From a phage: a DNA stretch of 64,000 nt. Under the pieces are notes generated by a model. That model saw nothing but the letters and a program-made list of their open reading frames with translations. It was not told the origin of the DNA and ran no database searches. The stretch is taken from NCBI GenBank assembly GCA_026188615.1, contig GCA_026188615.1_4525.1; one strand, written 5' to 3'. Shown here piece by piece: positions 15,216 through 59,997 of the stretch (positions are counted from its first letter, which is position 1; each line of letters opens with the position of its first letter). Position numbers and translations under genes: made by a program.

Positions 15216-15248
15216 GCATTATACTCTGCTCCCGAGAGTTTGTAAACT
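15216..15248 (-). promoter_or_regulatory. T4 early-type promoter (-35 TTTACA, 17-bp spacer, -10 TATAAT) with dyad GGAGCA/TGCTCC flanking the -10
   Basis: Minus strand: TTTACA at 15241..15246, TATAAT at 15218..15223. Confidence 0.55.
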
Positions 15249-51892: not shown

Positions 51893-52688
51893 AGGACATC
51901 CAACACATTTTATAACCTTTGCAGGTTCTGTTAGGATTATTTAATGCTTTCAATATATTAGAAGACCCTATATCTAAATACTCCCTTAATTCATAAAGAT
52001 AGTTAAAATCAATAGTTTCACCTGTTTTTACACTTGTGATTCTTATAGGCCTTCTTTCATATTTAGATTTATACAACTCTCTAGTCTTAGCTTTAGTTTC
52101 TTCCGACCTAGGAGTGTATGGTTTAAATCCTTTTGTTTTAAATGTTTCCATTCTTGATTTAGTTATTTTATCCTGGTGTTCTTTTGTTTTTACAGGTGCT
52201 TTTCGCCCATTCTCCCAAGATAACTTGTTGGCCTGTATTATTTTATCTATTGCTTCTTGCGTATGAGTTTTACCATAAAATGGATTTAATTCGCCTATAC
52301 GTTGTGAAGCAATATGTGACATTAATTCTCTTGTTGCTTTAGTATGTTTTTTACCTTTAAATGGATTGCCATTTTTAGCAATCCATTCTTTCATAAATCT
52401 AGAGTGCTCTTTAGAGAATTCTTGTTTAAGCCAATCATAATCTCTAGAATTTCTAGCTCCCATGTAAAAAGCTCTAATAGCCATAAGCATAGAACGGTTC
52501 TTATGAATTTTATAAAGCAATAAATGGGCGATAAAATGCTCTCTAGGGGTCAATTTAACTAGATTTGATTTAGCATTACTCCCGCCCATAGATTTTGGCA
52601 ATATATGATGCGTCTCAGTATAATTAGGAATAATGCTGCGGTTTTTAGCCGCAGCGATAAGTTTATCATAAATTTTACGATAATTCAT
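51891..52688 (-). CDS. free-standing HNH homing endonuclease (MobA-like, intact)
   Basis: ~265 aa from MNYRKIYDKL start overlapping gene 39 stop; HNH motif ETHHILPKSMGGSNAKSNLVKLTPREH; basic repeat-rich C-terminus. Confidence 0.7.
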   Translation of the reverse strand: MNYRKIYDKLIAAAKNRSIIPNYTETHHILPKSMGGSNAKSNLVKLTPREHFIAHLLLYKIHKNRSMLMAIRAFYMGARNSRDYDWLKQEFSKEHSRFMKEWIAKNGNPFKGKKHTKATRELMSHIASQRIGELNPFYGKTHTQEAIDKIIQANKLSWENGRKAPVKTKEHQDKITKSRMETFKTKGFKPYTPRSEETKAKTRELYKSKYERRPIRITSVKTGETIDFNYLYELREYLDIGSSNILKALNNPNRTCKGYKMCWMS

Positions 52689-54508
52689 TATCCTAGCATC
52701 CAATCTTTACGGAGTTCAGGGTCGTTACCCATGAGCATTTCAAATAGTTCTTTCCAATTTTCAGGAAGTTTAACTACGTCGTACACAGGGTTTTGAATCA
52801 TTTCTTTATATTCATCTCGCTGAAGTGAGCCTAATCCCTTGATGTATCGAATACTATGCTTAGGAAGTGTATCTTTAGCTTCTTCATACTCAGCTACAGT
52901 ATAAAACCATTTTTGAGTTTTGCCAATTTGTGCAATAATTACAGGCGTTTTAACAAAGCGAATACGTCCTTGTTCAAACAATTCAGGCCAATTACTAAAG
53001 AAAGCAAGCAAAGCCGGATAGATACTTCCAAGACCGTCATGATCGGCATCGGTCATAATTGCAATATTACGATAGTTCGTATTCTCTGCCTTTTCACCAA
53101 GAATAAGACCTGTGATAGCACAGATATCAAAGAGCTCTTTGTTCTTCATCATATCAGCATATGACATACCCCAGCTATTCATCACCTTACCACGTAATGG
53201 GAATCCGCCGTGTAGTTCACGGTCACGAACATCAATGAGATAACCAATTGCCGAATCACCTTCTGTTAAAAACAATGTCGTATCTGCATCTTTACCACAT
53301 TGGTTAGCTTTAATATGCTTATGAACCTTAGCTTTAGTTGCCTTTTTAGCTGCTTTAGTTTCTGCAGCCTTTTCTGCTGCCAATTTACGAGCTAATGCTG
53401 CTTCAACAATAGGCATAATCAAGGCTTCGTTTTTAAGAAGTGCCTGAGCAATTTTCTTAGCATCTAATTGGATATGATTACGAATATCACCATACGTTGA
53501 CGTTAAACGTTCTTTAGTCTGAGAATCAAAACGCATGTTGCTCATGTCTCTAATAAACATCAACATTGTGAGGCATTCTTTAACACGAGCTTTAGTGACT
53601 TCAATACCCTTATATTTCTTTTTAATACCCGGTAAAAGATGTTCGCAGATATCATCCATTACACATTCAACATGATGACCACCATTTTTAGTATGGATGT
53701 TATTCACATAAGTTAAATGACGGAAGCCATCTGGTGATGTTGTGAATGCTATAGAGACTTTATCATTTTCTTGAATGATGTTATCTTCACCAAATTGTTT
53801 AGCAAATCGTTTAAAATTACCATCAACCTTTTTACCATTAAATGTGAACTTGATATCAGGATAAACGACTGCCAATGTTTGAAGTCGGTCTAAAGTAATA
53901 TCTAAATAAATTTGAGATAAATTATGCTCTTCAAATGAAGAGAAATCAGGAGTGAAGATTACTTTAGTGCCTTTACCTTTAGATTTCTTAGAAGACCATG
54001 ATTTGTTTTCCATTCCGTTTGAACAGTTAACAGTGATTTCATTTTCGCCATCTGACGTGATGCCTGTAAACAAAGTAGAGAAGATATTAGTTAAACTACT
54101 CCCGACGCCGTTCATACCGCCAGTCTTGCGTTCAGAATCATCACCAAAGTTACCACCAGCCTTTGGAATAGTCCAGGCTGCTACAGGCCCAGGAATTTGT
54201 TCACCTGTTTGGTCAGTAACTAAACCTTGAGGAATACCACGTCCGTTATCTTCCACCGAAACTTGATTATTTTTAATTTGCACATCAATTTTATTTGCAA
54301 ACTTAAATGATGTACGAATAGCTTCATCAACCGAGTTGTCAATAATCTCATCGATTAATTTAACCAGACCAGGAACATATTCAACTTGTTGATATTTACC
54401 AAACAAAAAACGCTCATGGGCTTCTTTAGCAGAAGAACCAATATACATGCCACTACGTTTCTTAATATGTTCTACATCTGACAGTACCTTAATTTCATTT
54501 TTAATCAT
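52688..54508 (-). CDS. 39: DNA topoisomerase II large subunit gp39 (GyrB-like), unsplit form
   Basis: 606 aa single ORF; GHKL ATPase-like N-terminus (..DNGRGIP..); no separate gene 60. Confidence 0.85.
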   Translation of the reverse strand: MIKNEIKVLSDVEHIKKRSGMYIGSSAKEAHERFLFGKYQQVEYVPGLVKLIDEIIDNSVDEAIRTSFKFANKIDVQIKNNQVSVEDNGRGIPQGLVTDQTGEQIPGPVAAWTIPKAGGNFGDDSERKTGGMNGVGSSLTNIFSTLFTGITSDGENEITVNCSNGMENKSWSSKKSKGKGTKVIFTPDFSSFEEHNLSQIYLDITLDRLQTLAVVYPDIKFTFNGKKVDGNFKRFAKQFGEDNIIQENDKVSIAFTTSPDGFRHLTYVNNIHTKNGGHHVECVMDDICEHLLPGIKKKYKGIEVTKARVKECLTMLMFIRDMSNMRFDSQTKERLTSTYGDIRNHIQLDAKKIAQALLKNEALIMPIVEAALARKLAAEKAAETKAAKKATKAKVHKHIKANQCGKDADTTLFLTEGDSAIGYLIDVRDRELHGGFPLRGKVMNSWGMSYADMMKNKELFDICAITGLILGEKAENTNYRNIAIMTDADHDGLGSIYPALLAFFSNWPELFEQGRIRFVKTPVIIAQIGKTQKWFYTVAEYEEAKDTLPKHSIRYIKGLGSLQRDEYKEMIQNPVYDVVKLPENWKELFEMLMGNDPELRKDWMLG

Positions 54509-54558: not shown

Positions 54559-54572
54559 AGGGCCGAAGCCCT
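54559..54572 (-). terminator. hairpin AGGGC-UUCG-GCCCU plus U-run upstream of gene 39
   Basis: 5-bp stem with CGAA loop, A-run 54555..54559. Confidence 0.4.
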
Positions 54573-54997
54573 TATTTAAATTTAATTTTCTGAAGTGCAT
54601 CAATTGCAGCCAGGCGCCCTTGTTCACTTTTAACTGTAATGACCACATCGCCTGATACGATCACCGAACCATCAACAAATTCTATAGAGCCTTTTTTGAA
54701 ATCAACAGATGTATCTGGTTCCGGAACTTCTTCAAAGAATTTAAATTCTGCACCATAAAGCAGAATATCACCTTGCATACTATGAATAGTTCGGCCATAA
54801 TCGCCTACGGCTTCTACAGCAATAACCGAAACACCGTAACCAATCATCTCTTCCACAATAAAATCTTTAGACAATAAAGTAGTATGCAGATTAGTATTAA
54901 GACGTTTACCAGTCGTATTAAGAATTCTCAAGAAATTATCTTCCTGTCCTTTGATAATACGATATTTCTTACCAACTTCAAAACCTTTAAAAGCCAT
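54572..54997 (-). CDS. hypothetical protein (39.1 position)
   Basis: 141-aa ORF. Confidence 0.45.
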   Translation of the reverse strand: MAFKGFEVGKKYRIIKGQEDNFLRILNTTGKRLNTNLHTTLLSKDFIVEEMIGYGVSVIAVEAVGDYGRTIHSMQGDILLYGAEFKFFEEVPEPDTSVDFKKGSIEFVDGSVIVSGDVVITVKSEQGRLAAIDALQKIKFK

Positions 54998-54999
54998 AA

Positions 55000-55179
55000 T
55001 TAACCCTTCTTAAGTAAGTCGTAAAAACCACCGTTCACATGTTTAGGAGCAGAAACCCGACGAGTAGACAGACGATGACATTCAGGGCAAACATCGTTTT
55101 CTCGTTCAGAAATTCTTTTAATTTTTTCATATTCATGACCACAATCTTCGGATTGACATTTATAGTCGTATAACGGCAT
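55000..55179 (-). CDS. small CxxC...CxxC zinc-ribbon protein, 59 aa (not in ORF track)
   Basis: Hand-translated [59 protein letters not shown]; two Cys pairs. Confidence 0.5.
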   Translation of the reverse strand: MPLYDYKCQSEDCGHEYEKIKRISERENDVCPECHRLSTRRVSAPKHVNGGFYDLLKKG

Positions 55180-55592
55180 TATTGTTCCTTAAAGTGAGCT
55201 TTCAACATTTGATACAAAGACCATGCCTGGTCGTTATTTTCGATAGTAATTGTCATCACTGGAAATTCAGACAATTCGTCAAGTTCATCAGAATCTTGCT
55301 CTTCGGACGCTTGATATGGATTTCCAACTTCGTCAAAGAACTCTGCTTCATTCGTGGAGAGCCAGATAAAGTTTTCATCAAGGATATCACCGCCCGTGGC
55401 GTATCCAACCGTGCCAGTAGATGTCACAATTTTAGTAGGACGACCAAGATGGTCAACATCTAATACTTTAAATGGTTCCATGCCAAGACGTCGTGCATAA
55501 ATCCCATTATCAGTGTGGTCTTTAATAAACTCTTCTTGGGCACGTTTATCTTTAAATTGGTACCATGAGTTAACGCGGAATTTATTAGCCAT
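55179..55592 (-). CDS. hypothetical protein with acidic C-terminus
   Basis: ORF track 55179..55610 trimmed to MANKF start. Confidence 0.4.
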
Positions 55593-55876: not shown

Positions 55877-56401
55877 TCATTTTAGCAAAATAAAATCAAC
55901 TTGTTCTGCCAATGAACGTCTAAACATTAATTGACAACTTCCGAGGATGAAATCAGGTGCTTCATAGACCGCGATGTAGTATCCTTTAGCTTTCAAGAGT
56001 TCAACATCCACCTGGTCATCAAACCATGCATAAACCGCGTCAACGCTTTCAAATCCAAAATAGAACCCTTGAGCCCAATCTTCACTCAATTCAAATGTGT
56101 ACTCAATTCTATGGTATCTTAAGATATTTTGTTCAAGAAGTTTGTCTTCATTTACTGTAGGACGATTAGGGACATTATAGTTGTCGCCGTGATGGTAGAA
56201 GTTACCTGAGAGTATTCCATGCTTATCAAGGAACTCCCATGTTTCTTCAGAGTTGTCGGTGCCCGACCAACCGTATGGCGAGCGAGGTTCTTTATTCCAA
56301 GAGGTTTCCCAAATTCTGACGGCTTTACCGTCTTCGATAGCAATTCCTGGTAATGATTCACGTTGAGTGCAAAAACTACGTTCTACGCGGTAAACTAACA
56401 T
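55877..56401 (-). CDS. hypothetical protein, 174 aa
   Basis: ORF with GGAGG RBS; preceded by early promoter-like element 56410..56450. Confidence 0.5.
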   Translation of the reverse strand: MLVYRVERSFCTQRESLPGIAIEDGKAVRIWETSWNKEPRSPYGWSGTDNSEETWEFLDKHGILSGNFYHHGDNYNVPNRPTVNEDKLLEQNILRYHRIEYTFELSEDWAQGFYFGFESVDAVYAWFDDQVDVELLKAKGYYIAVYEAPDFILGSCQLMFRRSLAEQVDFILLK

Positions 56402-56460
56402 ATTATTCTCCTCCGGTTGATATGGTTATAATATCAAAACCAGAGGAGAAGTAAACAACT

Positions 56461-56880
56461 TTATGCGAAAGCAGCTGGGCTATATTTTTTAATTTGGAAT
56501 TCAGGAACTACCATGAACTGACCAGCGAAAACGATGTTATAAAGCTTAACACCATCTTCTACCCAACGGTCGCTAATAAATCCGGCGATTTGCTTAGTTT
56601 TCCATGGCGTTCCATCAGTTGCCGCAGCAATAGTGAATTCATGGTCTTTTTCAACAGAAACTGATCTGCATAGTCCCCATTTGAACGCTTTTTCTTCTGG
56701 CTCAATGAACTGGCTTGAGACGTAGCCAATATTACCATTAGCATCACGAACTTTAACTTGGTTACGACCAAAAACCGGATCACTCACAGAAAGAACTTCA
56801 ACCAACTTCCCGGCAACTTTAGAGCGAGAAGCAACAGATACATATACGTAATCACCTGTAGAGAGATTTACAATATTCAT
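56461..56880 (-). CDS. paralog 1 of tandem small-protein family (dexA-proximal)
   Basis: 139 aa; shares N-terminal SRSK.AGKLVEV and C-terminal FISD.WVEDG.KLYNIVF.G.F.VV blocks with neighbours. Confidence 0.55.
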   Translation of the reverse strand: MNIVNLSTGDYVYVSVASRSKVAGKLVEVLSVSDPVFGRNQVKVRDANGNIGYVSSQFIEPEEKAFKWGLCRSVSVEKDHEFTIAAATDGTPWKTKQIAGFISDRWVEDGVKLYNIVFAGQFMVVPEFQIKKYSPAAFA

Positions 56881-56889
56881 AATAATTCC

Positions 56890-57375
56890 TTAAGCTTTAC
56901 GAGGAGACACATAGCGAGTGATTTCGGATTCTTTAACAACTCGGAAGTCACCTAAGAATACGATATTGTATAACTTTTCACCATCTTCTACCCATTGGTC
57001 ACTAATGAAGCCACACATGGTATCAGTTTTGCTTGGATAACCGTATTCATCGATGAAGTCAAATTCTTTATCAGTCTGGAATTCAACACCTTTACACAAG
57101 GCCCATTTGAACTGTACATTAGGCTCTGTGGATTCAACTTTTTCTCTTGAAGCAAAAGCACTACTCGCAGGAGTTTCCAAGAACTTTGCACGAACATAAG
57201 CGAACTGAGTTTCCCTCGACCCAAGACTAGGAATAATACGAACTTTTACCTCAGAATCTTCATCTTTAACGCCTTCTTTAAGTTGAATACTTACAACTTC
57301 GACCAATTTTCCTGCTGCTTTAGAACGAGATTTGTTAGATACGCGAACGATTTCACCAATAATACCAAGATTCAT
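56890..57375 (-). CDS. paralog 2 of tandem small-protein family
   Basis: 161 aa; same conserved blocks. Confidence 0.55.
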   Translation of the reverse strand: MNLGIIGEIVRVSNKSRSKAAGKLVEVVSIQLKEGVKDEDSEVKVRIIPSLGSRETQFAYVRAKFLETPASSAFASREKVESTEPNVQFKWALCKGVEFQTDKEFDFIDEYGYPSKTDTMCGFISDQWVEDGEKLYNIVFLGDFRVVKESEITRYVSPRKA

Positions 57376-57436
57376 AATTTTCTCTCTTTGTTTAAGTTGA
57401 ATTCATTATACTCCACCCGTCCTTGGATGTACAACA

Positions 57437-57931
57437 TTAATTAAGGATATTAACCACAGCACTACGTGGAACTACACTAAAATCACCTGCATGAACAACG
57501 TTCAGAAGTTCAACACCGTCTTCAATCCACTGATCAGTCACCCATCCATTTACTGGACCAGCGAATGGGCGTCGAATTGAAACGTATTTACACAACAAAT
57601 CAGTAGGCTCAATAGGCTTAATCAGAGTACCGTACATACAAGCGATATCCATATCAATACAGATATCTTTAACGGGTTCTACTTCTTCAATCAACAGTTC
57701 AAAGTCGGTGCTTGGAAGGGCGGTGGTAGAAATTGTACCATATGAATTTTTAATTTCTAAGAATAACCAAGGGCCTTCAACTTGTTTGATGAAGTTAACA
57801 ATAGTGAAACTATTACCTTGAGTGGCACCTAAAATTTCACAAAACTTTTCATAAGCTCGCACTGAAGCACCGTACCAGTTGATTTGTTTTTCATCTTTCA
57901 GGATGTAAGTAGCCGTAGTATTGATATTCAT
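57437..57931 (-). CDS. paralog 3 of tandem small-protein family (more divergent)
   Basis: ~164 aa from MNINTT start; C-terminal WVTDQWIEDGVELLNVVHAGDFSVVP block. Confidence 0.5.
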   Translation of the reverse strand: MNINTTATYILKDEKQINWYGASVRAYEKFCEILGATQGNSFTIVNFIKQVEGPWLFLEIKNSYGTISTTALPSTDFELLIEEVEPVKDICIDMDIACMYGTLIKPIEPTDLLCKYVSIRRPFAGPVNGWVTDQWIEDGVELLNVVHAGDFSVVPRSAVVNILN

Positions 57932-57996
57932 AATGTTTTCCTGTTTGGTTAAGATAGAAAGATTATACTCCAACCATCCTTGGTTGTAAACTGGTT

Positions 57997-58674
57997 TTAT
58001 CGCTGTTTTACACTTAACGGGTCAGGATTCTCAGGTACATCTTCAAGACCAAGCGCATAACGCTGAGCATATTTTAACATCAAAATATCTTTAGCACAAT
58101 CGTGAATACTATCATGGGCAACGAATCCTTTTAGAGTACCCATCGGTAATGGACACATACTTAATCCTCGTGTCAACGAGTAAGCTTCGATTGCCGTACG
58201 AATATCGCGTTGAGCCCAGAATTTAACAGGTTCTAATTTATCGGTATCAATATCCGGTTCAAGAACACCTTCATCACGATAGAGGTCACGAATCAAATCG
58301 ACCAAGATCGGGAAGTCAAAGCTCATACCACGGCACCACATCTGTGATTTCCATTGGTCAACTTTATTAGCTCGACAATAATCTAAAAAGATTTTAATGC
58401 CTTCAAGCGTAGTGACATCGTCTTCAGACGGGGCCAGGTTTTTACGTGCTTCTGCTGATTGTTCTTTCCACCATTTCATAGTGGATTTAGCGAAAACTCG
58501 CTTCCCTTTTTGAGAAGCTAAATTAAATTTAATTCGCTTACCTCGTTGAACAAGTTCTTCAAATGTTTCAACAACTTCAGGGTCCGAATTATATGCAATA
58601 ACCGCAAGGTCAATAACAGCAGCTTTTGACGTATTGCCGAATGTTTCAAAATCTATAATAACATCAGTGCTCAT
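57997..58674 (-). CDS. dexA: exonuclease A (DnaQ-like 3'-5' exonuclease)
   Basis: 225 aa (T4 DexA 227); N-terminal IIDFETFG exonuclease motif; adjacent to dda. Confidence 0.8.
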   Translation of the reverse strand: MSTDVIIDFETFGNTSKAAVIDLAVIAYNSDPEVVETFEELVQRGKRIKFNLASQKGKRVFAKSTMKWWKEQSAEARKNLAPSEDDVTTLEGIKIFLDYCRANKVDQWKSQMWCRGMSFDFPILVDLIRDLYRDEGVLEPDIDTDKLEPVKFWAQRDIRTAIEAYSLTRGLSMCPLPMGTLKGFVAHDSIHDCAKDILMLKYAQRYALGLEDVPENPDPLSVKQR

Positions 58675-58683
58675 AATTTTCTC

Positions 58684-59997
58684 TCAAATAAAATGGACGT
58701 CAAAACGACCGCGAGTTGTGCCGACATACAATAACTGTTTAGCTAATTCTGAATCGGCATAATGGATACACGGTGTATAAACAAAGGCCGTGTCAACAGA
58801 CATACCCTGGGCCTTATGGAAGGTTGATACTGGTAGTGCCTTCACCTTAGTGAACATACGTTTAGCATCCCAGAATTCACTCCATGGAGCTTTACCACCT
58901 TTATTCCAGAATTTGTATGTTTCTGCGGTCTTAGCCAAAAACAAATTGAATTTATAAAGCTCTTCTTCAGAAGAAATAACCTTTATATCTTCGCGGATGT
59001 ATTCTTCATCATCCCCATATGTTTCTACTGTAAGATTCCAGTATCGTATCATATATTCGCCCGAAACACCACGTGCTTTAACGAATGTAGACGTTTCTAC
59101 AGCATCTCGAATACGAACGAATTGCCCGTTATTGAAAAGCATTTCAGTCATATTTTTGCCATCTAGCTTATATGTCTTAGTAAACGGCTCTTGTAGAACA
59201 ATGACTTCATCTTTAATAAATGGCTTTTCTGTTTCAAGAAGTTTTCGGCGAATAATTGAATTTAACTTGTCTACCGACTTATTTGTGAATGCCATCATTC
59301 GATTTTCGAAAAGGTCTTCAGGAGTTTTAACGACATTAAAATAGTTCATCATATACGATTTAAGGTCTGTATATCCATGAACACCGTGCCCATCAACTAC
59401 TTTATCGTAAATCCATTTGCCATTACGAATATCAGTCGCAACATCAATAATTGGCGCATTGCTACGTTTAACTTCTGTAAGGTCGCATTGCACGAAGTCT
59501 TTGTGAGTGAAGAAAGGACTTAGATACGCAGTGGATTCGCCTGGGTCTACCGGACGAATCTGGCATCGGTCACCAATTCCAATTACTGTGCACCATTTAG
59601 GGATACTAGCTAACATTATTTTAAACAGAGAACGGTCGCACATTGATGCTTCATCAAATAACAGTACACGACACAAGGCTAAGTCGGGAACCTTTTTCTG
59701 TTCAAACAATACGTTTTCTTCGTATGTAGTTGGGTTGATTTTAAGAATGCTATGAATAGTCGATGCTTCTTGACCCGCAAGTTTGCTTAGAACCTTTTTA
59801 GCAGCATGTGTAGGGGCTGCTAAAATAATACCTGATTCTCCGGCAGAAATAAGAGCTTCAACGATGAATCTAGTAAGGGTTGTTTTACCTGTACCAGCAG
59901 GCCCATTAATAGTTACGTGATGTTTCTTTTCTTTAATAGCTTTCATAACAACGTTGAAGGCGTTTTTCTGGCCGTCAGTCAAATCATCAAATGTCAT
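58684..59997 (-). CDS. dda: Dda DNA helicase (SF1B)
   Basis: 437 aa (T4 Dda 439); Walker A GPAGTGKT, LLFDEASM Walker B-like. Confidence 0.9.
   Translation of the reverse strand: MTFDDLTDGQKNAFNVVMKAIKEKKHHVTINGPAGTGKTTLTRFIVEALISAGESGIILAAPTHAAKKVLSKLAGQEASTIHSILKINPTTYEENVLFEQKKVPDLALCRVLLFDEASMCDRSLFKIMLASIPKWCTVIGIGDRCQIRPVDPGESTAYLSPFFTHKDFVQCDLTEVKRSNAPIIDVATDIRNGKWIYDKVVDGHGVHGYTDLKSYMMNYFNVVKTPEDLFENRMMAFTNKSVDKLNSIIRRKLLETEKPFIKDEVIVLQEPFTKTYKLDGKNMTEMLFNNGQFVRIRDAVETSTFVKARGVSGEYMIRYWNLTVETYGDDEEYIREDIKVISSEEELYKFNLFLAKTAETYKFWNKGGKAPWSEFWDAKRMFTKVKALPVSTFHKAQGMSVDTAFVYTPCIHYADSELAKQLLYVGTTRGRFDVHFI

Follow-up and report, generated by a model that had tools for sequence, protein, structure and literature searches.

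Among the closest described counterparts of the genes analysed here are MotB (Patterson-West et al. 2018 and 2021; Son et al. 2021) and MotB.1 of phage T4. Patterson-West et al. 2021 (Viruses 13:84, PMC7827196) aligned 102 phage homologues of MotB and distinguished four categories, in which the C-terminal domain is common and the N-terminal domain varies. Besides the MotB group there are two groups with other N-terminal domains, one of them including T4 MotB.1, and duplication of one gene was proposed as the origin of the other. The same study noted that RB69 carries two motB genes and one motB.1, and HHpred assigned the MotB C-terminal domain a cold-shock-like OB fold. T4 MotB was found to bind DNA tightly with no detectable specificity, with H-NS and StpA co-purifying on the DNA, and to alter the H-NS footprint; 75 host genes were upregulated, about one-third of them in the H-NS regulon, and H-NS-silenced host genes are de-repressed. 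Its over-expression is toxic, it improves phage fitness, and motB knockdown did not significantly change the T4 early, middle and late transcriptome (PMC7827196). Son et al. 2021 (NAR 49:9229) name both DNA compaction and derepression of H-NS silencing in their title. For MotB.1, Kim et al. 2025 (PMC12152347) reported an LSm-like N-terminal domain, a five-stranded bent beta-sheet whose fold is common to GoF and Frd.2; T4 motB.1 deletion and amber mutants were without phenotype, and MotB.1 was inactive in an RNA reporter assay.

Identification of a motB gene cluster

We analysed a 64,000-nt stretch of phage DNA (GenBank assembly GCA_026188615.1, contig GCA_026188615.1_4525.1), referred to below as the window. 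A first-pass annotation had singled out three consecutive minus-strand ORFs, describing them as tandem diversified paralogues in a T4-type early region, each led by its own early promoter, and as likely host-takeover or anti-defence factors. The three ORFs are all present, at 56461–56880 (ORF1, 139 aa), 56890–57375 (ORF2, 161 aa) and 57437–57931 (ORF3, 164 aa from an ATG). Megablast of positions 56300–58100 matched 624 phage records and identified the source phage as a Mosigvirus, an RB69-like T-even phage. The closest record is Mosigvirus vB-Eco-KMB38 (99.3% nucleotide identity), in which all four genes at this locus are annotated as transcriptional regulators.

The surroundings bear out the early-region placement. 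On the minus strand, and in the order of transcription, the window carries dda (58684–59997), dexA (57997–58674), motB.1 (ORF3), motB (ORF2), a shortened second motB (ORF1), motB.2 (55877–56401) and cef, so that all three ORFs lie in the dexA-to-cef early region of a Tevenvirinae genome. Between the topoisomerase subunit gp39 (52688–54508, minus strand) and the 174-aa motB.2 homologue lie, in this order, a 141-aa ORF, a 59-aa 39.2-like ORF, goF and cef, all on the minus strand, the last recognized by Pfam T4_Cef (E=8e-34). The motB region of T4, which the first-pass annotation had proposed for comparison, is the appropriate one: ORF2, ORF3 and the 174-aa gene match T4 MotB, MotB.1 and MotB.2, respectively, the 174-aa product being 33% identical to T4 MotB.2 (E=2e-15) and falling in phrog_1106. 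ORF2 matches Pfam PF17613 (motB) over profile positions 5–157 of 162 (E=7.6e-54), as expected of a MotB orthologue; ORF1 matches the same family more weakly (E=5.3e-21) and phrog_1671 at E=6.6e-51, and ORF3, the MotB.1 orthologue, matches phrog_2333 at E=1.7e-82. We are highly confident that the locus represents the motB cluster of an RB69-like T-even phage, with the domain architecture described below, and much less confident of any specific role for ORF1 or ORF3. The paralogy of the trio and its RB69-type arrangement are an instance of the published family, which the first-pass annotation had not identified by name, and were already known.

Paralogy and domain composition of the trio

The relationship among the three proteins was quantified by Smith–Waterman alignment against 500 shuffles. 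Similarity is well above that of the shuffled controls for every pair (z=37 for ORF1/ORF2, 15 for ORF1/ORF3 and 17 for ORF2/ORF3), with BLASTP E-values of 2e-28, 1.5e-9 and 3e-9, respectively, and 42% identity between ORF1 and ORF2; the description as tandem diversified paralogues is thus sound. The C-terminal block G(F/W)(I/V)(S/T)D.W(V/I)EDG..L.N.V..G.F.VV was found in all three. The N-terminal block SRSK.AGKLVEV, which had also been ascribed to all three, is confined to ORF1 and ORF2; ORF3 lacks it, and its N-terminal half shows no Smith–Waterman similarity to ORF1 or ORF2 above shuffles (z of -0.6 and -0.9). The reason is that ORF3, judged by sequence, is a domain-swapped relative (MotB.1), not a simple diverged copy.

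Family profiles draw the same line. All three proteins exceed the curated PF17613 gathering threshold (25 bits): ORF2 scores 182.4 bits over its full length, ORF1 75.6 bits and ORF3 35.1 bits, the last through its C-terminal domain only, and all database homologues bear a precomputed PF17613 assignment. In PHROGs, phrog_1671 ('MotB-like transcriptional regulator') contains ORF2 (E=2.6e-69) and ORF1, and ORF3 belongs to phrog_2333, of unknown function in that resource, with phrog_1671 as a secondary match. The KOW-like N-terminal domain (SRSKAAGKLVEV region) and conserved C-terminal domain that define MotB Category 1 are both present in ORF2 and ORF1; ORF3 lacks the former, the z-scores of its N-terminal half being below 0. 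It has the features of MotB.1 (Category 2), namely a non-KOW N-terminal domain, a GWVTDQWIEDGVELLNVVH-type C-terminal domain and a position directly upstream of motB, and its C-terminal motif agrees fully with the family consensus. A search of the trio against NCBIfam gave no match. An hhalign comparison of the two class alignments (A3 versus A4, E=5e-38) is partly circular, each alignment holding members of the other class, and is not independent evidence.

The extent of ORF3 had been placed at 57973, which corresponds to a 178-aa form initiating at TTG. This form is not supported because the TTG at 57973 lies within the promoter and the homologues are 164 aa long, in agreement with the ATG start; the gene itself stands.

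Two candidates for a further paralogue were rejected. One, the 29-aa 'Category 3' peptide, is what a frameshift makes of the tail of RB69 motB.1; the other, the 174-aa neighbour, a 'transcriptional regulator' in KMB38, scores z of -0.3 to 1.4 against ORF1, ORF2 and ORF3. A tblastn search of the whole window for the C-terminal domain returned no copy beyond the three known.

Comparison with T4, RB69 and RB3

ORF2 is 58.6% identical to T4 MotB over the full length (E=2.5e-60), and the two agree in their KOW-like N-terminal and C-terminal domains, in their dexA–cef neighbourhood and in having a predicted early-type promoter. ORF1 shares both domains with T4 MotB at 37% identity; it differs from that protein in being near neutral, in not being led by a promoter, and in missing both the approximately 25-residue linker and part of a hairpin within the N-terminal domain. 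A second motB copy is absent from T4. Between ORF3 and T4 MotB.1 the identity is 37% (E=1.6e-26), with the same order of N- and C-terminal domains and the same position directly upstream of motB, although ORF3 has about 20 more residues between the domains (DMDIACMYGTLIKP). ORF3 is also complete at the end of the C-terminal domain, where the T4 reference MotB.1 (119 aa) falls 28 residues short. The reference protein is shortened because of one extra G carried by the reference record alone: this G is absent from 13 other T4-type genome records, and the intact form has 143 aa. The published MotB.1 constructs (PMC12152347) were built on the truncated T4 reference annotation.

Gene order in T4 (dexA, motB.2, motB.1, motB, cef) differs from that of the window. 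The RB69 reference, in contrast, has exactly the order of the window (motB.1, motB, a MotB-like 139-aa gene, motB.2), and the order and spacing of RB69p010 to RB69p013 (motB-like, motB, a 29-aa ORF, motB.1) are those seen here, including 9 nt between motB and the 139-aa gene. Its proteins are 95% identical to ORF1 and 98% identical to ORF3, and its MotB (151 aa) is 78% identical to ORF2. In the RB69 reference, motB.1 is split into 132 aa and 29 aa by two 1-nt insertions, whereas the copy in the window is intact; the split is probably peculiar to that record. The order of the window was found in six loci, namely the window itself, KMB38, RB69 and three IMG/VR contigs; in eight further T4-like loci the arrangement is that of T4 and the second motB is absent. 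The second copy is not restricted to Mosigvirus: in Tequatrovirus RB3, a 139-aa gene with 89% identity follows motB after 9 nt, and the motB–second motB pair is thus conserved in two genera.

Promoters and transcription units

The promoters and co-transcription proposed here rest on consensus matches. Three sites of the GTTTAC...TATA type exist, as the first-pass annotation had noted, although they are not distributed one per ORF. The predicted early-type promoter of ORF3 (57962–57991, minus strand, GTTTACAACCAAGGATGGTTGGAGTATAAT) is GTTTAC-N18-TATAAT, matching 12 of 12 early-type and 11 of 12 sigma-70 positions; exactly this arrangement occurs at two sites in the 64-kb window against 0.12 expected. 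The candidate promoter of ORF2 (57405–57434, minus strand, TTGTACATCCAAGGACGGGTGGAGTATAAT) is TTGTAC-N18-TATAAT, with 10 of 12 matches and a perfect TATAAT, and begins 3 nt past the ORF3 stop codon. The third site (56428–56456, minus strand, GTTTAC-N17-TATTAT, 11 of 12) is downstream of ORF1 and would serve the 174-aa motB.2 homologue. It overlaps a predicted RNA hairpin (56406–56450, minus strand; minimum free energy -24.9 kcal/mol, z=-4.05, with 0 of 200 shuffles folding as well), which contains the -10 element of this promoter and whose 3' arm covers the Shine-Dalgarno sequence GGAGGAG of the 174-aa gene.

ORF1 is differently placed. From the ORF2 stop to the ORF1 ATG there are only 9 nt (56881–56889, minus strand, GGAATTATT), which leave no space for a promoter, and the ORF1 Shine-Dalgarno sequence AAGGA overlaps the ORF2 TAA stop. 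Within the 3' end of ORF2, the best candidate for an ORF1 promoter matches 8 of 12 positions, which is background level, and the TGCTT core of a MotA box for ORF1 is absent. Given the 9-nt gap, the AAGGA of its own and nothing above 8 of 12 upstream, ORF2 and ORF1 are most likely expressed as a single bicistronic early unit. Judged by consensus, the earlier proposal of one promoter per ORF holds for ORF3 and ORF2 and fails for ORF1, and the trio does not appear to make up three independent transcription units: two of the three genes are preceded by a predicted promoter, and ORF2 and ORF1 are likely to be co-transcribed.

Family breadth and selection

An ORF1-type gene, defined by at least 80% identity, is present in 208 of the 761 phage records with a MotB-type match. 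Since no record has its best match between 60% and 80% identity, the ORF1 type is a distinct and stable lineage, fixed at 139 aa and 84–100% identical across the 208 records and two genera. Ratios of dN/dS, calculated by the Nei–Gojobori method against Mosigvirus relatives, are 0.11–0.21 for ORF1 (four comparisons), 0.07–0.10 for ORF3 and 0.23 for ORF2, the ORF2 value leaving out L003 and L006, where a gapped match treated as ungapped gave values above 1; for comparison, dexA gives 0.01–0.04. ORF1, ORF2 and ORF3 are all maintained under purifying selection.

We considered whether ORF1 could be a redundant, decaying motB duplicate without a function of its own. It is shorter than MotB, the linker and an own promoter are absent, the type is missing from 553 of the 761 MotB-bearing records, and in KMB38 a W93-to-stop mutation interrupts the gene prematurely, which shows that at least one isolate can do without the second copy. 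Set against these observations, the dN/dS ratios of all four comparisons and the fixed length and high identity in two genera are those of a maintained gene, which has moreover retained its own Shine-Dalgarno sequence and gives a confident structure model (below). Decay is, on this evidence, very improbable, and we keep to ORF1 as a maintained lineage within the family.

The same conservation bears on a possible anti-defence role, which had been suggested from the layout of the genes. Anti-defence genes are commonly laid out as tandem, diversified early paralogues, and this layout fits an array in which each protein of the trio would act against a different host immune system. The relief of H-NS xenogeneic silencing by MotB may also be regarded, loosely, as counter-defence. 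However, the tight conservation (84–100% identity of the ORF1 type, dN/dS of 0.1–0.2) is unlike that of fast-evolving arms-race genes. Neither annotation nor the literature retrieved ascribes such an activity to any family member, and PADLOC, whose library models defence and not anti-defence proteins, gave no match. We therefore consider an anti-defence array improbable. The alternative suggestion of a host-takeover role fares better, in that the family has a documented member of this kind in T4 MotB (PMC7827196).

The family as a whole is very small: a profile built from 40 members retrieved 32 clusters at E up to 0.001 among 1.84 billion cluster representatives. The farthest of these combine a classical KOW motif (GKxVKVISGKHxG) with the same C-terminal core, and the significant structural relatives in BFVD that bear an organism name are all from T4-like phages. 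Several domain combinations occur in the database. For example, a KOW N-terminal domain is joined to a MotB.1-type C-terminal domain in Klebsiella and Enterobacter phages, MotB.1 forms of 180 aa and 250 aa exist with one or two N-terminal modules, and in some chimeric proteins a MotB N-terminal domain precedes an ORF1-type C-terminal domain. This variety indicates recombination among the tandem copies, as read from the sequences.

Predicted structures and charge

The AF2 model of ORF1 (pLDDT 86.9, pTM 0.75) consists of two five-stranded beta-barrels, the KOW-like N-terminal and the C-terminal domain, with the inter-domain linker absent. In ORF2, a basic KOW-like N-terminal domain is followed by a linker and the C-terminal domain. 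In both proteins the SRSKxAGKLVEV motif sits in the KOW-like barrel, which is of the SH3 type. ORF3 (pLDDT 78.8) is modelled as an N-terminal domain that is beta-rich with one helix (pLDDT 80–87), a linker at residues 86–107 with pLDDT below 50, and the C-terminal barrel. The shared C-terminal beta-barrel spans about 55–75 residues around the core G-[FW]-[IV]-[ST]-D-x-W-[VI]-E-D-G-x-x-L-x-N-[IV]-V. By fold, the close known systems are tandem SH3-like barrels (53BP1 tandem Tudor, Spt5 KOW-KOW, NusG KOW and KIN17), and what the models suggest is a pair of tandem SH3-like barrels in place of the OB fold, a minor new point. A sequence search for a solved relative of ORF2 in the PDB found none, the best hit (E=0.35) being a chance match. 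The published LSm-like link of MotB.1 to GoF was not confirmed by hhalign, as the MotB.1 alignment gave no match to the GoF of the window (E=0.2). The sole link is that the 141-aa protein encoded nearby cross-matches phrog_2333 weakly (E=0.0012).

Charge differs widely among the proteins. ORF2 is acidic overall (pI 5.4), with an N-terminal domain of pI 9.8 and a C-terminal domain of pI 4.7, in contrast to T4 MotB (pI 9.2); ORF1 has a pI of 7.8 and ORF3 of 4.5. Invariant positions in the C-terminal domain are occupied by D, W, E, G, L, N and V, which are acidic or hydrophobic and in no case basic. On account of this composition and conservation, the C-terminal domain is more likely to be a protein-contact or self-association module than a DNA-binding surface.

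These features can be set against the names under which the genes are filed. The labels in GenBank, PHROGs and Pfam ('modifier of transcription', 'transcriptional regulator') would make the trio sequence-specific regulators of phage genes. The models, however, are all-beta barrels, with no helix-turn-helix or other specific DNA-reading motif, and for T4 MotB both the absence of detectable specificity in DNA binding and the T4 transcriptome, not significantly changed upon motB knockdown, speak against such a function (PMC7827196). Specific regulation by the trio is in our judgement decidedly unlikely, and the account that follows builds on the non-specific DNA binding of T4 MotB.

Discussion

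By homology with T4 MotB, which is abundant and made early, ORF2 would be produced in quantity directly after infection and would use its basic KOW-like domain to coat DNA irrespective of sequence, compacting it. It would thereby alter the binding of H-NS and StpA, leading to de-repression of H-NS-silenced genes and better phage fitness. Charge-driven DNA coating may not transfer unchanged from T4 MotB to ORF2, because ORF2, whose C-terminal domain is acidic, has an overall pI of 5.4 compared to 9.2 for the T4 protein. ORF1 would most likely be made from the same early mRNA as ORF2. Both ORF1 and ORF3 probably have related but non-identical jobs, the C-terminal domain having been kept while charge and N-terminal domain diverged. 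We postulate that the three proteins have in the C-terminal domain a common module for partner binding or self-association, and that the choice of nucleic acid falls to the N-terminal domain, a KOW domain directing the protein to DNA and an LSm-like domain possibly to RNA.

As a discovery the locus is minor, since hundreds of T-even genomes already carry annotations for these genes and their paralogy is published. What is new is likewise minor, and comprises the SH3-like models, the small size of the family, the record-specific truncation of MotB.1 in the T4 reference and the probably record-specific split in the RB69 reference. The truncation has a practical consequence, in that negative results obtained with the 119-aa T4 MotB.1 may need redoing with the 143-aa form.

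For work on this family it may be useful that purifying selection acts on both the intact MotB.1 and the second copy of MotB. The SH3-like or Tudor-like C-terminal barrel with its acidic motif, as modelled, favours protein binding or self-association over the proposed OB-fold DNA binding. A more speculative proposal, to which we assign a small chance, is that the paralogues cooperate and are not redundant. The invariant, acidic D-x-W-x-E-D-G motif would then be a shared surface for docking or hetero-oligomerisation, contacting either a single host protein such as H-NS or StpA or the paralogues themselves. The exchanged N-terminal barrels (a basic KOW, a neutral KOW and an acidic LSm-like one) would direct the complex to DNA or RNA. 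If this is true, the phage would encode a small combinatorial 'chromatin' toolkit of tandem SH3-like/Tudor-like barrels.

Frameshifted motB.1 genes in the T4 and RB69 references

In the T4 reference (NC_000866.4; locus L002, 2205-2400), MotB.1 is 119 aa long and ends in GWVTDQWIGRWR*. Comparison with part of the MotB.1 orthologue of the window, ORF3 (window positions 57437-57620), reveals that it is shortened by one additional G (TGGATTGGAAGATGG versus TGGATTGAAGA), and that the other frame after this end holds 28 codons reading EDGVELLNVVHAGEYSVVPRSAVVAILN, the conserved C-terminal domain core. The extra G occurs only in both copies of the T4 reference record, while 13 other genome records (RB55, RB59 and 11 of T4 or T4T) are 100% matches to the G-less version; in T4T, MotB.1 is annotated as 143 aa. 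Kim et al. 2025 (PMC12152347) give MotB.1 as a 13.8-kDa protein and do not mention the extra G, and the truncated form may be what their negative results describe.

The RB69 reference (NC_004928; locus L003, 3877-4060), compared with the same part of the window (57437-57620), carries motB.1 in two pieces, one ORF of 132 aa and another of 29 aa (RB69p012). The break results from two insertions of 1 nt each, both absent from the window, where the gene is intact and encodes 164 aa. RB69p012 is the 'Category 3' peptide of Patterson-West 2021 (PMC7827196). We reject its reading as an independent mini-gene, as the peptide is the frameshifted tail of motB.1.

Two minus-strand ORFs match a further family, phrog_622: a 141-aa ORF adjoining gp39 (54572-54997; E = 8.5e-22) and GoF (55179-55592; E = 1.7e-39). 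The 141-aa ORF also gave a weak match to phrog_2333, the MotB.1 family (E = 0.0012). On the question of whether the 141-aa ORF, GoF and the MotB.1 family are related, direct pairwise similarity was not significant (z = 1.5).

Putative regulatory elements around the MotB genes

Four early-type promoters (window 57962-57991, 57405-57434 and 15218-15247; T4 reference L002, about 2190-2220) all contain a short GC-rich inverted repeat in the spacer between -35 and -10, such as AACCAaggaTGGTT. The promoters of ORF3 and of the MotB orthologue ORF2 have similar spacers (ACAaCCAAGGAtGGtTGGAGTATAAT versus ACAtCCAAGGAcGGgTGGAGTATAAT). Either the promoter consensus or a co-duplication with the genes may account for this.

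Further downstream on the minus strand, a strong RNA hairpin (56406-56450; MFE -24.9 kcal/mol, z = -4.05) precedes the 174-aa motB.2 homologue. Its upstream arm pairs with the Shine-Dalgarno sequence GGAGGAG of this gene, and the hairpin contains the -10 element of the gene's own promoter. Transcription reading through from ORF2 and ORF1 would give an mRNA whose ribosome-binding site is masked; if it began at the local promoter instead, the 5' arm of the hairpin would be missing from the transcript. The arrangements at T4 e, soc and I-TevI are similar.

Truncation and possible recombination of the tandem MotB copies

ORF1, the second and shortened MotB copy, is interrupted in the closest relative of the window, vB-Eco-KMB38 (locus L001, 2662-3081), where a nonsense mutation changes W93 to a stop. 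The orthologue is therefore annotated as only 92 aa, and is without the core of the C-terminal domain. Three MotB-family proteins from metagenomic contigs (P0148, P0149 and P0151) are chimeric, joining a MotB-type N-terminal domain and linker to an ORF1-type C-terminal domain or tail. Such chimeras would arise if the tandem copies recombined unequally.
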